From positions 1,408,001-1,472,000 of the forward strand of contig OZ242274.1 in the NCBI GenBank assembly GCA_965207375.1: DNA of 64,000 bases. The letters are read 5' to 3'. The position numbers and the translations under genes were made by a program. The DNA is from Nitrosopumilaceae archaeon (GTDB taxonomy: Archaea > Thermoproteota > Nitrososphaeria > Nitrososphaerales > Nitrosopumilaceae). Of the stretch, positions 34,257 through 53,649 are shown piece by piece (positions within the stretch are counted from its first letter, which is position 1; the number at the start of each line of letters is the position of its first letter). Below the pieces are notes generated by a model. That model was not told the origin of the DNA and ran no database searches. It saw nothing but the letters and a program-made list of their open reading frames with translations.

Positions 34257-35620
34257 TAGACAGTAGCGCAACCCTGCCTAAAATCCTTCAAAATCATACG
34301 AAATGACCCATATTAGACTAATCCATCAGGATTTTTTACATTACGTGCTTTTTGATCATGATATCACTTGTATGCTTGTGCCTAAACTAGCTGATGGAAC
34401 TAAAATTACTCATGCTCAAAACGATGCAAGATACATCGAACGTGGAAGACAGCTTGCATTGACCAACAAAAGTCTTGATGATCCACAAATACAAGAGGAG
34501 TTACGCAGTATGAACAAGAAAAAAAACGGACATCCGTATGAATATCCTGATTCGTTGTTTGTTGCCCTAGCACTAGTACGTTCAATGTGCGGATTGTCAT
34601 ATCGTGTACTTGAAGGATTAGCAGCAGAATCCCTTGGTAAAGACAACGTTCCACATTTTACAAAAATACGCACACGCATTCTAGCACTAGATACAGACAA
34701 GCTTGGAAAGATGACATTCAAAAAAAATGGTAATAACAAGGTTACAATCAGCATACTACCTGACGGTACAGGCCTAGAGCCGTGTACCCGTGGAGAATTT
34801 ATACGTGCCAAACACAAAGTTAGGCGTGGTTTTATCAGATTTACAACAATAATTGATCACGATACCATGAAGATACTTGCCTATGAGATTACAGATGAGC
34901 GTACCGGAGAAGCAATGGGACTAGAGAATATGATTGAAACCGCACTAGAAAATCTGGGTGTACAGGTACAAAAACAAGATACAGAAAAACTAGATACAAA
35001 ACAGGAGAATGTAAAGAGTGGTACAAAAAAACAAGACACAAAACAGGATAAAGAATATGATTCAACAGATACAATTCAGACTCGCTTGGAAGAAAAGGAC
35101 AAAGACAATAATCCAAATATCAGACTGTTAGGTGATGGACTGTATTCAAAATGCAAGTTCTTTGATATGTGTGATTTATTTGGAATCGAGCTGGTATCAC
35201 CAGTAGCTTCTAACTCTGCTGCAAAGGTACGTGGTAGAAAGGGAGGCAGGGCGCGCAAAAAGGCTGTACTAGAACAGCTTGGAGGAGGAGTGCATGCCAA
35301 TACATTTGCAACATTAACTGATGCACAACGTGCAGAAAATATGAAAAAGTGGAAAAAACAGGTAGGATACGGCAGAAGATGGCTAGTTGAGATAATGTTT
35401 TCAGCATTCAAGCGAATGTTTGGAAGCGCTGTAATGGCAGTAAAGATGGAAAACATAGTTCGGGAGATTTCATTTAAGGTATTTGCATACAATAAAATGC
35501 TAGACATAGCGCAGGAGGCCATGGCTAGAGCATAATGACTGTAAACTTTACAGTACAAGTCAATCAGACTTGGATCAAGTGAGTTAGATTTGGACCAAGT
35601 CGTAGTTGCGCTACTGTCTA
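34257..35620 (+). mobile_element. IS5-family insertion sequence
   Basis: 16-bp TIR TAGACAGTAGCGCAAC; 8-bp TSD GTAGGTTC (34249-34256, 35621-35628). Confidence 0.9.
34303..35535 (+). CDS. IS5-family transposase, paralog of 14616..15806
   Basis: PDGTG, GDGLY, YGRRWLVEIMFSAFKR. Confidence 0.9.
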   Translation: MTHIRLIHQDFLHYVLFDHDITCMLVPKLADGTKITHAQNDARYIERGRQLALTNKSLDDPQIQEELRSMNKKKNGHPYEYPDSLFVALALVRSMCGLSYRVLEGLAAESLGKDNVPHFTKIRTRILALDTDKLGKMTFKKNGNNKVTISILPDGTGLEPCTRGEFIRAKHKVRRGFIRFTTIIDHDTMKILAYEITDERTGEAMGLENMIETALENLGVQVQKQDTEKLDTKQENVKSGTKKQDTKQDKEYDSTDTIQTRLEEKDKDNNPNIRLLGDGLYSKCKFFDMCDLFGIELVSPVASNSAAKVRGRKGGRARKKAVLEQLGGGVHANTFATLTDAQRAENMKKWKKQVGYGRRWLVEIMFSAFKRMFGSAVMAVKMENIVREISFKVFAYNKMLDIAQEAMARA

Positions 35621-36063: not shown

Positions 36064-36135
36064 AGGCCTGTTGTTTAGTAGAAGAACGATTGACTGAAAA
36101 TCAATAGGTCACGGGTTCGAATCCCGTCAGGTCCA
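36064..36135 (+). tRNA. tRNA-Phe(GAA)-like gene with degenerate D loop
   Basis: ATTGA-CTGAAAA-TCAAT anticodon arm, ACGGG-TTCGAAT-CCCGT T arm, GGCCTG/CAGGTC acceptor; D loop lacks GG; AT-rich TATA-like upstream. Confidence 0.7.
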
Positions 36136-45108: not shown

Positions 45109-46269
45109 TCAATCTCTAATTGCTTCAGCTATTTCTTTACATACAAATATTTTACTTTTGTATTTGTTACTTATCTCATCTAGTATTTGTACGTCAATTA
45201 ATCTCTGTACAGCATTTTTTGCCGATGGGTAAGTTATGCCTAAATAATCTGCGGCTTTTGGAATTGTTATGAATGGATTTCCTAACAAATAATCTATCAA
45301 CAAGACCGCACTTCCACTAACACGTTGTTTTTTCAAAGTTTGTTTGTATTTTTTTTGAAGAGTTAACAACCTTTGAATATTTTCAATTGCCTCATCTGCC
45401 GTTACCGTTATCGCATGTAAGAAAAACATCAACCATTCTTTCCATTTACTTTGTTGACTAATGGCCAACAATCCTGCATAATACCTGTCCAAGTTTTTTT
45501 CAAAATATGCACTCAAATACAATAAGGGTTGAGAAAGCAAACCTCTTTCTGTTAAAAGTAAAGGAATCAACACTCTTCCAATTCTTCCATTTCCATCTAG
45601 AAAAGGATGTATAGCTTCAAATTGATAGTGTAGAATTGCACATTGTAGAACTACTGAAAGATTTTCTGGTGGTTTTTGTAGAAATTCTTCTACTTGTTCT
45701 AATAATGATACAACATATTCAGGTGGTGGGGGTGTATATACGGAATTTTCAAGGGTATCACCATATCTGACTATCCAATTTTGAACTGTTCTAAACGATC
45801 CTGGATTTTTATCTCCACCTCTGACCCCCATCATCAATATTTTGTGAGATTCTCTTATCATTTCTAAATCTATTTTTCTTCCATCTTTGATTATCTCCTT
45901 GATTTTTTCTTGTAACACTTTCACATAGTTTCTTACCTCTTTCAACCGTAATCTTTCTTCGTCTTCTTGACGAAAACTTCCTACTACCTCATATTGTAAT
46001 AGATCAGTCATTGATGCTAATGTTCCCTCGATTTTGGAACTTAATACGGCTTCCCGAGTAAGATAGGGTCTAATCAACACATGTGGATTTGGAAGTAAAT
46101 CACCTCTTCCTTTTAATTCCGCCAATTTTCGTTCTGCATGAACAAGAGACATTACTAAATCATCGTCATATTGTATTTCTGGTGGTATTTTATTAGGAAT
46201 AAAGGTCTCATATCCTTTCGTATTTTTTATTATTTTGCCGTTAGGATTGGTAAAGTCACTTTTATTCAT
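45109..46269 (-). CDS. Fic-family protein
   Basis: SSKIEG and HPFLDGNGRIGR motifs; C-terminal HTH. Confidence 0.95.
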   Translation of the reverse strand: MNKSDFTNPNGKIIKNTKGYETFIPNKIPPEIQYDDDLVMSLVHAERKLAELKGRGDLLPNPHVLIRPYLTREAVLSSKIEGTLASMTDLLQYEVVGSFRQEDEERLRLKEVRNYVKVLQEKIKEIIKDGRKIDLEMIRESHKILMMGVRGGDKNPGSFRTVQNWIVRYGDTLENSVYTPPPPEYVVSLLEQVEEFLQKPPENLSVVLQCAILHYQFEAIHPFLDGNGRIGRVLIPLLLTERGLLSQPLLYLSAYFEKNLDRYYAGLLAISQQSKWKEWLMFFLHAITVTADEAIENIQRLLTLQKKYKQTLKKQRVSGSAVLLIDYLLGNPFITIPKAADYLGITYPSAKNAVQRLIDVQILDEISNKYKSKIFVCKEIAEAIRD

Positions 46270-46469: not shown

Positions 46470-47606
46470 GTGTCCAAACAAAAAACCAAACAGAGCCGTG
46501 AACTATTAAACAATCCACGATTATATCAAGATGCCGCATCTGGTGCCAAAAACATGCTTGCATGTACTACTTTGTCAGTCAAGGGCAATACGATATATGG
46601 AGTTGATGATCTCAGTACCGGAATGTTGAGGGCTACCATTATGGATTCCTCTGTAGGAGGATGTGCAAATGCGGTAAAACAAAAAAACAGCAATACGCCA
46701 TCAGACAGATGGTATGCATCTGCAATCAAGGGGATATCAGAGGAAACAGTACAGGACGTTTTCCAATTACAGATAGCAAGACAGGTTAAAATTCTCAAAA
46801 AAATGGGAAAGATTCCAAAGAAGGGGCTTACAGTTGCAATGGACCTACACCTCATATGCCGTTATGACAGGACACATGGGGAGGAGTTGACCCGTTCCAA
46901 ATACAAAAACGGCACGACATACTTTGAGCGTTACATGACGGTTCACTGTGTGGATGATACAATGAGAGTCGTTCTAGCTGCAATACATCTCAAAATGCTT
47001 GATTCCGTGCCTAAATCGGTGAATTTTCTGCTCAAAACACTGTCGGATTTGGGGGTAAAAGTTCGTCTGGCATTATGTGATCGTGAGTTTTTCTCAGTGG
47101 ATACAATGCAAATGCTGATTCAAAACGACGTATCCTTTTTGATACCTTGCAGAAATACACCAAATGTAAAATCTGCACTAGACGAGTATAGTCGTAAAAA
47201 ACGTGATGTAACATCAGAGTGCACCCTACAAAACGACTGTCATTCTGTACCGTATACAATGATAATAGAAAGAAGAAAAGGGTCAAAGGATACTGATGTT
47301 GCCGAGGAAAAATACATTGGCTTTGCAACTAACTGTAATACTGTAGACGTTACAGAATATGCAAGTAGGTGGGGGATAGAATCAGGATACGGCAAGATAG
47401 AGGAATGCAGGGCCAAGACACGAATCAAGGATAATGTATCAAGAATGCTGTGTTTTTATTATTCACTGATACTGTACAATGAGTGGATAATTATCAGGGC
47501 TATTCTTTGTGACGATACAGCAAGTCAGAGTATTATGACCATGCTAGTTTTCAAAGTACAAATGGATTTTGAGTTGATGCGTCAGTTCAAGCCGCCGCCA
47601 GGGTAG
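46470..47606 (+). CDS. ISH3-family transposase
   Basis: AMDLH, CDREFF, YASRWGIESGY. Confidence 0.9.
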   Translation: MSKQKTKQSRELLNNPRLYQDAASGAKNMLACTTLSVKGNTIYGVDDLSTGMLRATIMDSSVGGCANAVKQKNSNTPSDRWYASAIKGISEETVQDVFQLQIARQVKILKKMGKIPKKGLTVAMDLHLICRYDRTHGEELTRSKYKNGTTYFERYMTVHCVDDTMRVVLAAIHLKMLDSVPKSVNFLLKTLSDLGVKVRLALCDREFFSVDTMQMLIQNDVSFLIPCRNTPNVKSALDEYSRKKRDVTSECTLQNDCHSVPYTMIIERRKGSKDTDVAEEKYIGFATNCNTVDVTEYASRWGIESGYGKIEECRAKTRIKDNVSRMLCFYYSLILYNEWIIIRAILCDDTASQSIMTMLVFKVQMDFELMRQFKPPPG

Positions 47607-48645: not shown

Positions 48646-49905
48646 ATGAGTGTAACAAACAAACCAACAAAAATCAACGTTGATGGAAAACAATATCCGT
48701 TAGCGTTTGTATGTAAAAAAATCAGAACAACCCTAAAACTCTCATCTGCCGTGTATAACCGCGGTAACACATTTTTGTGTGATGGAGATATGGTGGCTGT
48801 TCTGTCTGGAAATCACATAACATCTGTGATAACCGGCAAGAAACTAGACCTTTCACAAAGCCATGTGAAAAAAACACATGAACTAATTGATAACTGCAAA
48901 AAATCAATTGGTGATTTCACAGACTCTGCGGACTTTTATCAAAGAGAACCTGAAGGCTTTGAACCAATCAGCGGCAAAGCATTTGCAATTGGTTGGAAAA
49001 AAGACGGCTTTTACGAGTCGTTACATTTTGCAGATGCAGACGGCACAATGTTAAATGCTATACTAGACAAAGACACAATCGACACTCTAGTAAAACCATA
49101 CAACAGACCTGTAATAGAGCGTAGACATGTAAACTACACACCACGCTCAGAAGAGGTAGCGTTTGCACTAGCAGACATGCAAGGTTCTGACATACTAGTC
49201 CGTACGGAAAACCAATTCCATGGAAAAGTTACAGAACCCATATTTGTCGAGGAGCAACCATCAGAACAATACCAGTTTCTTTTATCTGATGATGGTCAAA
49301 TCTTGACACAAAAGTACACACCGATAAAGGAATGTGACTGCATATCTGTATCATCAATGAGTGATGAGTTCAGAGAAGCATTTGCTGATATTATCGACGA
49401 ATCACAAATGGGTGCAAAAACAGACTATACAACAGAGGCCCAAATATGTGAAGAAATAATAGACATAGAAGATGTGGTACCTTCACACTTTGTAGCAGAC
49501 AAAACAGCAAGAGATGTCAAAAGACAAAGCCAGAGTATACACACAGGTGAGAGAACACACAAGCCAAGAAAACATGACAATAGGACATACAATCCTGCTG
49601 ACATTTTGTCTCATGCCAAAACACTAGACAGCAAATCTTTGATTGTTATCTACAAACCAATGATATCACAATATCATGACCACGGTGAGACTGAACGACA
49701 CTGCAACATCTGTGTCTTTGAAGATGTATCAGAAAATCTTGAAGATACAATGGTGTCTCTTCGTGGCATGGAAGCATCTCAACTAACTGTATTTATCAAA
49801 ACAGTTGAAACCGCAATGGACCAACTACAGGTACCAACACACAAGGAGCCTGTGGAATTATCCATCGCAAAAAGCCTGCTAAAAGCAAAGTCTTCACATT
49901 GCTAA
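48646..49905 (+). CDS. Hypothetical protein
   Basis: 419 aa; AGGAGGT upstream. Confidence 0.75.
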   Translation: MSVTNKPTKINVDGKQYPLAFVCKKIRTTLKLSSAVYNRGNTFLCDGDMVAVLSGNHITSVITGKKLDLSQSHVKKTHELIDNCKKSIGDFTDSADFYQREPEGFEPISGKAFAIGWKKDGFYESLHFADADGTMLNAILDKDTIDTLVKPYNRPVIERRHVNYTPRSEEVAFALADMQGSDILVRTENQFHGKVTEPIFVEEQPSEQYQFLLSDDGQILTQKYTPIKECDCISVSSMSDEFREAFADIIDESQMGAKTDYTTEAQICEEIIDIEDVVPSHFVADKTARDVKRQSQSIHTGERTHKPRKHDNRTYNPADILSHAKTLDSKSLIVIYKPMISQYHDHGETERHCNICVFEDVSENLEDTMVSLRGMEASQLTVFIKTVETAMDQLQVPTHKEPVELSIAKSLLKAKSSHC

Positions 49906-50267
49906 GCGCCCAAAAGGTAGCATCGATTTTAGATGCCCTTGTACTTGCCGGAAACGTTGAAACATCACAGCAATTTTTCAAATGCTGTGGTCCCAACTGG
50001 CAAAAGGTTTACAGTCTTTTGTCCCCGGAGGCACAAAAATCACTCAATCCAGATGTATCACATCAAATAAAGATAGACCCAAAAATTGCAGTAAAGGTGT
50101 TCAATGAACTAGCATCTGCACAGCAATATGATACTATCATCATGATGTGCAATTCTAGGATTGGAAACATTGGACGTATCATGAACTTTTGTTCACCTGA
50201 TGCTGTTCGTGTAATCAGCCGTGTCAGACAGACATGGCAAAAAAATGTACAGATTACCTGTACATAG
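49899..50267 (+). CDS. Hypothetical protein
   Basis: 122 aa, overlapping previous stop. Confidence 0.6.
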   Translation: MLSAQKVASILDALVLAGNVETSQQFFKCCGPNWQKVYSLLSPEAQKSLNPDVSHQIKIDPKIAVKVFNELASAQQYDTIIMMCNSRIGNIGRIMNFCSPDAVRVISRVRQTWQKNVQITCT

Positions 50268-50273
50268 GGAAAA

Positions 50274-50396
50274 TCCCACTGATGAGTTTGCCATAGCGAC
50301 ACCGCATGAAGCAAACGCTGGAGTATTCCAGTTGACTGACTCCATCCCGCAGATACGGGGGTTAGTCGAAACATCCTAGTACCAGGATGTCTGGGA
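50274..50396 (+). ncRNA. Type I hammerhead ribozyme with multibranched stem II
   Basis: TCCCA-CTGATGA-G...C-GAAA-CATCCT-agtacc-AGGATG-TC-TGGGA; predicted cut after C50391. Confidence 0.8.
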
Positions 50397-50511
50397 AAAA
50401 GAAACACAAATCCTTCCATCCCAGACCTGATGATACCTATACCATCTAATGGTATCTGTAATATCAGGTCAATGAGGGATTTACACAACACAAACAACGG
50501 AGGTTGATATA

Positions 50512-50763
50512 ATGAGTTATACAATCACAAAATACCAAGGAAAATTTGAAACAGCAGAAAACATACCAAAGACAGGCAGACTAGTTACTGCAGAATCTTT
50601 GTTCAAAGAAAAGTCCGCACTCAGAAATGTTGCAGCAGTATTCATACAGCAACAAGAAACAGTATATCTTGTCTCACTACGTGAGATGGTACCAGAAGAC
50701 TCGAAAGTCATCGTAGATGATCAACAAAACATTTGTGCCATACCAGCAGTTGCCGGGGGGTAA
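50512..50763 (+). CDS. Small protein with ubiquitin/SAMP-like C-terminus
   Basis: 83 aa ending IPAVAGG; GGAGG upstream. Confidence 0.65.
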   Translation: MSYTITKYQGKFETAENIPKTGRLVTAESLFKEKSALRNVAAVFIQQQETVYLVSLREMVPEDSKVIVDDQQNICAIPAVAGG

Positions 50764-50813
50764 AACCCCTTGGAAACTCGCAGAGTATCCAATACTGATT
50801 CAAAAGGCAGACA

Positions 50814-50948
50814 ATGCTTTCAGCAACCGGCGCAATAACACGCATCGATTCTGGACGATTTTCTGTAGGTTCGGGAGTAATAGTTGACATCCATGGGTGC
50901 AACTGTCCCGGATACACAAAATGTAGAATCTGCTCACACTTGTTGTGA
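50814..50948 (+). CDS. Tiny SWIM-type Zn-finger peptide
   Basis: Manual translation ...GCNCPGYTKCRICSHLL. Confidence 0.4.
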   Translation: MLSATGAITRIDSGRFSVGSGVIVDIHGCNCPGYTKCRICSHLL

Positions 50949-51002
50949 GAAATCTCTTGACACAATACGACACCAACATAATCTAGGAGGAACAACAAGA
51001 AA

Positions 51003-51209
51003 ATGTCCAAAAAAGAACTAGAAAAAATTGTAGAGTTGTACCGCAACTATAACATCGAAAAGATGCACAAACAAAAAATCATAAAGAGTTACACAAATAC
51101 TATCATGGCCATCCTTGAGGTGTGCTCAGAAGAGACCATATCCAAAATCAATGACTGTCTTGAGCAGGAAGAAAAAATACAACCATCACCAATTGGTATT
51201 GTATCATGA
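51003..51209 (+). CDS. Hypothetical protein
   Basis: 68 aa; AGGAGG upstream. Confidence 0.55.
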   Translation: MSKKELEKIVELYRNYNIEKMHKQKIIKSYTNTIMAILEVCSEETISKINDCLEQEEKIQPSPIGIVS

Positions 51210-51781
51210 GTGTAGTATCAACATACAGAAAAGACAATCAAATTTTGGAAATATTTGTAGATGAAGATCCTACAAGTCCAAGAGAATGGGATAATCTAGG
51301 TACAATTATCGCTTATCATCCAGACTATATCCTTGGAGATAAACAAATGGATCTACAGACTGCACAGAATGAATGTAAAAAACATATCAAAACTGCATAT
51401 GTTGCATTGCCATTATACATGCTAGAACATAGCGGTATATGGTTGTCTACTGAAACATTTGTTTGTGACCTCCAGGGCTGGGATACTAGTGCTGTCGGCA
51501 TGATATACTGTACAAAATCAGAGGTAAAGAAAATGCTGCAAGTGGACACCCTAAAATCATCAGACAAAAAAAGAGTAGAACAAATCCTAAAAGAGGAAGT
51601 CGAGGAGTGTGGAGAATATCTAAACGGTGATGTATATGGATACTCTCTAAGTACGGTATCTAAATGCAACCAAGGAATGGAACATCTACATCTTGTCGAC
51701 TCTTGTGGTGGATACTATGGTCAAGAGGGCATAGACTCTATCCTTGAACAAAACGGCGCACAAGATTGGGAGAAGATATAA
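51206..51781 (+). CDS. Mobile-element hypothetical protein
   Basis: DPTSPREWDNLG, LPLYMLEHSG, DSCGGYYG resemble phage/ICE hypotheticals. Confidence 0.7.
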   Translation: MSVVSTYRKDNQILEIFVDEDPTSPREWDNLGTIIAYHPDYILGDKQMDLQTAQNECKKHIKTAYVALPLYMLEHSGIWLSTETFVCDLQGWDTSAVGMIYCTKSEVKKMLQVDTLKSSDKKRVEQILKEEVEECGEYLNGDVYGYSLSTVSKCNQGMEHLHLVDSCGGYYGQEGIDSILEQNGAQDWEKI

Positions 51782-51962
51782 TCATGAGCACCGAATCTCG
51801 GCTCCTTTCACATTCCAAAAAGGAATTGGTAAATCTGCTCATCATGGCAAGTGCCAGGATTTTTACACTACAAAATGAAGTGAATGGGTACCAAACCAAT
51901 TGTAACTGCAAACCAAACACCGGTGACAGATTTGCAGACATTGATAGGGCGTGGAATAAACC

Positions 51963-52175
51963 ATGATTGACCAATATACAATGTATGTAGATCCAAACTA
52001 TTCGTATCTTAAAGTACCTAGAAAGGAACTAATCAAGATGGATGTACTTTCAAAAACCAGCAGTAGGTCATTCAGACGCGGGGCGTGGGTTCTACTAAGA
52101 GAGGGTGCTGACATGAACAGATTCATGAAGCAAAAAGGTCAGGTAGAAATCATAAAAGAGTTCACACTAGTGTGA
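51963..52175 (+). CDS. Hypothetical protein
   Basis: 70 aa in a packed operon. Confidence 0.55.
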   Translation: MIDQYTMYVDPNYSYLKVPRKELIKMDVLSKTSSRSFRRGAWVLLREGADMNRFMKQKGQVEIIKEFTLV

Positions 52176-52866: not shown

Positions 52867-53296
52867 AATCACGGAGTTGATGAAATTGAACGGAAAATCA
52901 AAATCCAAACTGGTTGAACCAGAAAGGAATTTAGCAAAACAACGATTGGAAAATCTGAAACAGGATCTAGAAGAGTTTCTAGAGGACCCACAAATTGGCA
53001 TGACCATAGATGAGTGGAGCGGCAGAGCCGAAACATATTATGGTATTGTAATGTCAGGTGAGGGAGGCAATCGGGTTAATGGCATTCCTGGCTTTGACTA
53101 TTATGAGGAATGTGATTATCTGGCAGCAGAGGCTGTAACAGAATTTGGCGGTTCTACACCAGAGACAACATATGACTTTGGAGTCCACAAAAAGCTCAAA
53201 GAGTTTCTTCAAAAAAGAGGAGCAAGTGCAGAATGGTATGATGCAGGGACTGTTCATGTATACTTTGAAGAACCCCGTCAAGCACCAAAAAGATGA
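52817..53296 (+). CDS. Hypothetical protein
   Basis: FDYY...GVHKK...EWYDAGT. Confidence 0.65.
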   Translation: MISDFGWTPYMTKTNYKITELMKLNGKSKSKLVEPERNLAKQRLENLKQDLEEFLEDPQIGMTIDEWSGRAETYYGIVMSGEGGNRVNGIPGFDYYEECDYLAAEAVTEFGGSTPETTYDFGVHKKLKEFLQKRGASAEWYDAGTVHVYFEEPRQAPKR

Positions 53297-53388
53297 ATTG
53301 TAAAACATTCGTAGATAATCTACGATACAATATGTCATGTGAAACATTACTGATATCGGTAGACAATACAAAAAGGAGGTACGATATA

Positions 53389-53649
53389 ATGAACCAAGAA
53401 ATACAAGTGATTAAACCAAAGGTAACATTTGATTTTGATGTACCAGAATCTTACAAAACGGTAAAGGCCTTTACTTTACTGTCTGAAAAAGAATTGCAGA
53501 CATTTAGAGAAAAGGGTGCTGCTCTGATAATATCAGTAGATGGTAAATTCATACCGGTACTGTTACACTCAGATGTACCAACACAAGCAACAGCAGTTCG
53601 TGACACACAAGGAAACCTGTGGGGTATTCCTGCAGTAGCAGGTGGTTAA
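53389..53649 (+). CDS. Second small protein with ubiquitin/SAMP-like C-terminus
   Basis: AGGAGGT then ATG 53389; 86 aa ending IPAVAGG. Confidence 0.65.
   Translation: MNQEIQVIKPKVTFDFDVPESYKTVKAFTLLSEKELQTFREKGAALIISVDGKFIPVLLHSDVPTQATAVRDTQGNLWGIPAVAGG

Follow-up and report, generated by a model that had tools for sequence, protein, structure and literature searches.

No small ribozymes have been studied more thoroughly than the hammerheads, whose core is taken to be a fixed three-way junction. Can such a core take up further helices in nature and, where it seems to have done so, which of the helices is to be regarded as stem II? These questions are raised by a locus on the + strand of a 64,000-nt stretch of DNA from an archaeon of the family Nitrosopumilaceae (hereinafter the window; G000:C1:1408001-1472000, G000 being the archaeon's own genome), in whose positions all coordinates are given unless another contig or locus is named. 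The first-pass annotation of this DNA read positions 50274-50396 as a hammerhead with a perfect core and intact stems I and III, placed it in an archaeal mobile element, and saw three consecutive hairpins in the position of stem II, which would leave at most one closing G-C pair and might form a natural allosteric switch.

Architecture of the RNA in the window

The letters of 50274-50396 (+) and their MFE fold uphold the description of a hammerhead-type RNA with a perfect core and with stems I and III intact, and they likewise place three hairpins where stem II is expected. The parts, with the conventional numbering of the core, are the following:

50268-50273, + strand: A-rich 5' tail GGAAAA, adjoining the 5' side of stem I (alignments A4 and A6)
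50274-50278, + strand: 5' strand of stem I, UCCCA (TCCCA in the DNA), pairing with 50392-50396
50279-50285, + strand: core C3-A9, CUGAUGA (CTGATGA), by direct reading
50286-50316, + strand: hairpin A, read as the first inserted hairpin; GTTTGC/GCAAAC plus an inner stem, with the closing pair G50286-C50316, from the MFE fold
50317-50332, + strand: hairpin B, read as the second inserted hairpin; GCTGGA/TCCAGT
50333, + strand: linker U (T) between hairpins B and C (A6 column 123)
50334-50367, + strand: hairpin C; GACTGACT/GGTTAGTC plus an inner CCCG/CGGG, with 50334 as candidate G10.1 and 50367 as candidate C11.1
50368-50370, + strand: core G12 A13 A14 (GAA), invariant in A5 and A6
50371-50390, + strand: stem III hairpin of 7 bp, with A15.1 at 50371 and U16.1 at 50390
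50391, + strand: C17; the predicted cut is C50391/U50392, from the consensus position in hammerheads
50392-50396, + strand: 3' strand of stem I, UGGGA (TGGGA)

The strand C3 U4 G5 A6 N7 G8 A9 of the type-I hammerheads is present as CUGAUGA at 50279-50285, together with GAAA at 50368-50371, the pair A15.1-U16.1 (U50390) and a residue other than G at position 17 (C50391). Stem I is open, and stems I and III both covary among the homologues (A6). The RNA departs from the type-I description at stem II, which does not lie directly between A9 and G12 with G10.1-C11.1 as its closing pair, hairpins A and B and a U intervening. The MFE fold of 50270-50400 is exactly the five-helix layout, at -49.6 kcal/mol, compared with -30.8 +/- 3.8 kcal/mol for shuffles of the same segment (z = -4.94; none of 200 folds as well). 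Stem I is short, having 5 bp here and 4 bp in two copies. The core pattern CTGATGA N60-90 CGAAAC has one match in the window, where 0.06 are expected, and at least one match in 6 of 100 shuffles; hence, the core letters alone are weak evidence, and the case rests on the helices and the homologues.

The tail GGAAAA is unchanged in all four copies from the window's genus and is purine- or A-rich elsewhere (A4, A6). When A6 was read by eye, the A-rich tails showed no Watson-Crick partner that is conserved, and any part for them in a tertiary contact is conjecture. The five-helix variant has no evident contact of the loop-loop or pseudoknot type that would join stem I to stem II. The leader that separates the ribozyme from the next start codon holds a further, strong nested hairpin (50424-50470, +; GACCTGAT...ATCAGGTC, with the inner stem ATACCAT/ATGGTAT). 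This hairpin was rejected as a hammerhead, despite starting with a second CTGATGA, because GAAA and stem III are both missing.

Rfam models

At the gathering score, Rfam returned no hammerhead for the whole window, the only match being a tRNA. At E <= 10, the 401 nt of 50150-50550 matched no hammerhead model and no aptamer, giving only three chance-level matches, and the window copy does not reach the gathering score of an Rfam hammerhead. Across the whole G000 genome, the best score for RF00163 is 20.8 bits, at a site other than the window copy. Such scores are a weak test of membership, since canonical hammerheads of a related genome (G067, described below) fail in the same way: neither of the two reaches gathering, their best match being to RF03152, with 19 bits.

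The site of the best RF00163 match in the window's genome (G000:C4:449766-449833, -; likewise below gathering) is a canonical type-I hammerhead with CUGAGGA, a stem II of GUCC/GGAC and a stem III of 11 bp, set in ORF-poor, repeat-like DNA. Contigs C2, C3 and C4 of this assembly have 11-19% of their sequence in stop-free frames of at least 150 aa, compared with 78% for C1, and look eukaryote-like; they are probably not archaeal DNA.

Homologues and their distribution

A DNA search of 61 relatives recovered a clear homologue from G001 and, from G004, two 5' halves; on reading, the G001 and G004 loci proved to hold complete copies with the same layout as the window, and each of the first four copies folds alone into the five-helix layout (4/4). 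Covariance models were built from two (R1), four (R2) and seven (R3) copies. R1, run on 151 genomes of the family, returned only the copies already known, and a letter pattern run on 401 genomes pointed to the same three genomes, its reversed control giving 0 matches. R2 added three far more diverged copies in G067, a member of another genus. With R3, matches were obtained in 6 of the 151 family genomes, adding a second copy in G000, two in G004 and one in G031 (a third genus), and in 2 of 151 genomes of the order, adding a copy in G586, which belongs to another family and has the core CUGAUGA.

The homologue search that the first-pass annotation had suggested as a check thus yields 12 copies with the five-helix layout and a preserved core (CUGANGA, GAAA) in six genomes, four genera and two families of the window's order: the window copy and G000:C1:1474689-1474885 in the same genome, four in G004, three in G067, and one each in G001, G031 and G586. 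Five of the 12 were absent from the model that detected them (the second G000 copy, 53.6 bits; two G004 copies, 54.9 and 48.5; G031, 62.1; G586, 46.3). Judged from sequence, the match in layout is not a matter of chance.

The second copy in the window's genome (G000:C1:1474689-1474885, +) is diverged and lies 2,689 nt past the end of the window, beyond the gene for an HSP90-like ATPase and a number of small ORFs. A decayed-looking copy with the core CUUAUGA was found at L280 836-952 (+; G019:C23:836-952), scoring 21.2 bits. Weak model matches in G160 and G481 were rejected, the latter having neither GAAA nor stem III. There was no match to phage records in a blastn search with 49000-52000. Exact-pattern scans, vetted with regular expressions plus models R1 and R3, returned no homologue from viral contigs, 16 loci from genome contigs, all of them spurious but L018 (the G001 copy), and 17 loci from metagenome contigs, none of them real. 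These blanks say little about the wider family, because the early patterns demanded letters such as ACGCT that are specific to one genus.

Conservation and covariation

We compared the copies in three alignments, A4 (holding four copies of the window's genus), A5 (seven rows) and A6 (11 copies in 10 distinct rows, without the G586 copy). In A6, which, like A4 and A5, was fitted to the model structure and favours it, 96.6% of 324 cells hold standard pairs (shuffles, 74.5 +/- 1.7; slid partners, 31-50%). Both sides change in 23 of 35 pairs, no helix lacks a compensatory pair, and none of 500 shuffles comes up to these values, a control that is not to be taken as a probability. The copies are not independent samples, since they belong to related elements from six genomes. 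The five helices are also what RNAalifold predicts from A6; of its 29 pairs, 19 are compensatory.

All five pairs of stem I are 100% paired in A6, three of them with changes on both sides. The seven pairs of stem III are also 100% paired; its A-U (10/10 distinct copies) and a C-G are invariant, and the other five change on both sides. The core strand reads CUGAUGA in five rows of A5 and CUGAGGA in two identical rows, and these are the only two forms among the 11 rows of A6; position 7 of the core is free in hammerheads. H17 is C or A in every row of A5. Across A5 and A6, then, CUGANGA, GAAA, A15.1-U16.1 and C or A at position 17 are preserved while the helices diverge, and these alignments, together with the G586 copy, bear out the conservation of the core in homologues.

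The inserted region presents a different kind of conservation. Both sides change in all six outer pairs of hairpin A, whose closing pair in the 10 distinct copies is GC in 4, UA in 2, AU in 1, CG in 1 and U.U in 2; this hairpin is hypervariable, its length and its sequence both differing widely among the copies, and the hairpin B loop varies in both respects as well. The base of hairpin B is built of G.U (10/10), C-G (10/10) and U.G (8/10, with one C-G and one U-A), and three of its pairs change on both sides. The linker U is present in 10 of the 11 copies. Hairpin C closes with G-C in 10/10 distinct copies, followed by a second pair that is GC in 6, AU in 3 and GU in 1, and by a third that is C-G in all 10. 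The only invariant letters outside the core are those of the hairpin B base, the linker U and the hairpin C base (G, C / G, C). Many of the preserved pairs are G.U, which fits an RNA transcribed from the + strand.

Genomic setting

The ribozyme is intergenic, occupying a 244-nt spacer between two + strand ORFs, and lies on the same strand as its neighbours:

49899-50267, + strand: upstream ORF of 122 aa with no family match; homologues occupy the corresponding position in G001 and G004 (blastp, 43% identity, E about 1e-32)
50512-50763, + strand: downstream ORF of 83 aa, of the IPxVAGG family, named for its invariant C-terminal motif IPxVAGG

Neither flanking ORF was matched by Pfam, PHROGs or NCBIfam. 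Synteny around the ribozyme is conserved. Nearby genes code for a HerA/TrwB-like ATPase, ArdC-N, SNase, OB-fold proteins, an HSP90-like ATPase, DDE transposases and a Fic protein, and the surroundings look like an integrated plasmid-like or conjugative element. The assignment of the RNA to an archaeal mobile element accordingly stands, on the HerA/TrwB-like ATPase, ArdC-N, SNase and DDE transposases in its vicinity. Upstream of the operon are a Fic-domain ORF (45109-46269, -), DDE transposase ORFs (46470-47606, +, and 34303-35535, +) and a tRNA gene (36064-36135, +); these may mark the border of the element or later insertions.

Eleven of the 12 copies were placed relative to genes, as follows:

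Five copies (the window, G001, G004 copy a and two identical ones in G067): next upstream of an IPxVAGG-family gene
One copy (G004 copy b): preceding an HSP90-like ATPase gene and holding a remnant of the start of such a gene
Four copies (the second in G000, two in G004 and that in G031): at the distal end of the same long operon
One copy (in G067): followed by tandem repeats

One gene in G004 is flanked by two variant copies. The repeats in G067 (C1, about 123300-123500, -) number at least three, with a unit of about 57 nt, and lie downstream of the copy at 123710-123873.

The IPxVAGG family is represented in the window at 50512-50763 and 53293-53649, with homologues in L113, L114, L274 and L275. 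Both window proteins end exactly at Gly-Gly, while relatives extend into varied tails, and G067 holds seven copies of the family in 40 kb. The idea that these proteins are ubiquitin-like was considered and found unsupported: the AlphaFold model has a pLDDT of 85.8, and of the 44 Foldseek matches listed against PDB, 0 reach E <= 0.001. Near the element in G004, a C/D box sRNA match (RF00095, 45.7 bits against a gathering score of 45) lies at L113 19742-19797 (-).

Which helix is stem II

The claim that stem II is replaced, with at most one closing G-C pair left to it, does not hold across the homologues. Of 6 distinct copies, 4 have a letter after A9 that makes a standard pair with the C before G12, and 2 have C/C and U/C there, which are unpairable; across A6, each of G, C, U and A occurs after A9, set against a C that is always present before G12. 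Because this pair fails in 2/6 copies and hairpin C closes with G-C in 10/10, we consider it most likely, from the aligned copies, that hairpin C is stem II, closed by G10.1-C11.1, and that hairpins A and B and the U are inserted between A9 and G10.1.

It could still be argued that G50286-C50367 is a one-pair stem II closing a four-way junction of the three hairpins, and that a shift between the two forms acts as an allosteric or conformational switch. The junction letters G, C, G, C in the four copies of the window's genus permit both pairings, and natural hammerheads with such a stem II are reported in the text of Perreault et al. 2011 (PMC3088659). We nevertheless hold this to be very improbable: apart from the unpairable and freely varying letters just described, the four-way form is predicted at -35.2 and -36.6 kcal/mol against -49.2 kcal/mol for three closed hairpins, 13-14 kcal/mol worse in a rough nearest-neighbour model without coaxial stacking, and hypervariable hairpin A leaves such a switch without a conserved pocket. 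Covariation alone cannot choose between hairpin C and hairpin A, and the latter might be the true stem II, its closing pair being 10.1-11.1 and hairpins B and C being inserted between 11.1 and G12. The CUGANGA strand does continue directly into hairpin A, whose closing pair is kept or covaries (GC, CG, AU, UA), and even the U.U of two distinct copies is a tolerated natural 10.1-11.1 mismatch in the text of Perreault et al. 2011 (PMC3088659). Against this, 10.1-11.1 is described as a highly conserved G-C in the texts of PMC4209133 and PMC3088659, as found here in hairpin C (10/10) rather than in hairpin A (4/10); hairpin C runs directly into GAAA, and its first pairs, GAC.../...GUC, are the first three pairs of stem II (GACC/GGUC) in a canonical G067 hammerhead. 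Placing stem II in hairpin A would, moreover, break the strand 11.1-G12-A13-A14-15.1 that passes through the stem II/stem III coaxial stack (stacking as given in the text of PMC4209133). Hence, hairpin A is a possible stem II that fits the conservation less well, and we regard it as improbable; the reading with hairpin C as stem II is favoured over it.

With hairpin C as stem II, the insert at the A9/G10.1 step amounts to 48 nt in the window copy and has other lengths in other copies. This step is a divalent-metal site, and the insertion would interrupt the backbone exactly there. The insert might slow or abolish cleavage. Literature searches found no precedent for a 48-nt insert at A9/G10.1.

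Proposed function

We propose that the RNA probably belongs to a distinct, conserved subclass of self-cleaving type-I hammerheads, has hairpins A and B and the U inserted at A9/G10.1, and cuts the long transcripts of its element. Its parts would be ordered as stem I, CUGANGA, the insert (hairpin A, hairpin B, U), stem II (hairpin C, with G10.1-C11.1), GAAA, stem III, UH, and stem I again. On this proposal, it would be transcribed with the + strand operon of the integrated plasmid-like element and cleave itself between C50391 and U50392; the upstream mRNA would end in the complete folded ribozyme and bear a 2',3'-cyclic phosphate, and the downstream mRNA would start with a 5'-OH, 120 nt ahead of the start codon of the 83-aa IPxVAGG gene. 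With other copies preceding related genes or ending the same operon, the ribozymes would cut the long transcripts of the element into units. Such a role in cutting polycistronic transcripts is likely by analogy, since copies flanking genes match the arrangement in bacterial prophages given in the text of Perreault et al. 2011 (PMC3088659).

The proposal has to be weighed against a non-cleaving, conserved structured RNA derived from a hammerhead, which would keep the core letters for some different use, for instance as a protein-binding site or in stabilising the 3' end of the upstream mRNA. A large insert that breaks the backbone of the core, the lack of a match to Rfam hammerhead models and the placing of 4 of the 12 copies last in the operon, a sensible site for a stabilising 3' structure, all speak for such an RNA. 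We consider it unlikely, given that C3, U4, G5, A6, G8, A9, G12, A13, A14, A15.1-U16.1 and a position 17 other than G are kept across two families in which the helices have all diverged; the sole copy with a changed core (CUUAUGA, in G019) scores poorly overall too, and sister elements place canonical hammerheads in equivalent intergenic sites.

As for the natural allosteric switch envisaged for the junction, the homologues do not sustain it: hairpin A varies widely, there is no match to an Rfam aptamer, and invariant letters are few. A switch is unsupported because no ligand pocket is seen in so hypervariable a hairpin. The copies show neither the many invariant unpaired letters of an aptamer nor a match to a known aptamer family, and the invariant letters outside the core, as far as the alignments indicate, mark a junction rather than an aptamer. 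A more speculative version, to which we attach only a small chance, is that the inserted hairpins are a control module, in which the G.U/C-G/U.G base of hairpin B and the linker U would dock a protein or RNA of the element or host and so decide whether A9 stacks on G10.1. If true, this would be the first natural hammerhead with cleavage gated in trans, and its catalytic core would be one that tolerates a multi-helix junction at the A9/G10.1 step.

On the favoured reading, the copies make up a natural subclass that is conserved in two families of archaea and whose core strand has taken in two additional helices. Should it cleave, the A9/G10.1 step would be able to host a whole domain, the descriptors used in searching for hammerheads, which are blind to the variant, would need change, and a new insertion point would become available for engineered switches. 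Predicted self-cleaving ribozymes would thereby join the biology of integrated elements in ammonia-oxidising archaea.

Comparison with known hammerheads

We did not find the layout, with extra hairpins within the core of a natural hammerhead, described in the literature. Nothing relevant to a branched stem II or one with extra hairpins in natural hammerheads emerged from the literature searched, supplements lying outside its scope (Dataset S1 and the figures of Perreault et al. 2011 might hold something similar). No paper linking hammerheads with Nitrosopumilus was found in the literature searched, nor, among titles and abstracts, any paper on hammerhead ribozymes in Thaumarchaeota; a survey of thaumarchaeal integrated elements mentions neither 'ribozyme' nor 'hammerhead'.

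The closest counterparts in setting are the type-I hammerheads of bacterial prophages and mobile elements (Rfam Hammerhead_1, RF00163), which, in the text of Perreault et al. 2011 (PMC3088659), flank single genes in bacterial prophages, including around ardA. The variant shares with these the core letters, the segment order CUGANGA, GAAA, UH, the open stem I and closed stem III, and the same-strand intergenic position in a mobile element, with copies flanking single genes. It differs from the forms in that text in having two hairpins and a U between A9 and the helix adjoining GAAA, and from prophage hammerheads in its host, an archaeon of ammonia-oxidiser type (Nitrosopumilaceae), and in matching no Rfam hammerhead at E <= 10.

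Smaller departures at the same step of the core have precedents: one extra bulged nucleotide lies between A9 and G10.1 in the CChMVd (+) hammerhead (text of PMC3705267), and one extra residue in the min-HHRs of Penelope-like elements (text of PMC4209133). The linker U of the variant adjoins G10.1 at this very step in 10/11 copies; in contrast to the single bulged nucleotide of those RNAs, the insert here is of variable length (48 nt in the window) and includes two helices.

Nearer relatives in kind of element are two canonical minimal type-I hammerheads in G067, at L275 8960-9004 (-) and 9639-9700 (-) (G067:C1:148960-149004 and 149639-149700), which flank one 198-aa ORF. They share with the variant an intergenic position and the type of element, and their stem II sequences, GGCC/GGCC and GACC/GGUC, equal those of the hairpin C base in the G004 and G001 variants; unlike the variant, they lack the inserted hairpins and span 45-62 nt. 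The RAGATH-1 hammerhead (RF03152) and the non-circularly permuted hammerheads (PMC10085705) resemble the variant as natural forms whose periphery or connectivity is unusual. In the RF03152 consensus, stem II consists of one pair, and this model gave no match to the window copy. Unlike the forms of PMC10085705, the variant keeps the standard type-I order of core segments, without permutation.
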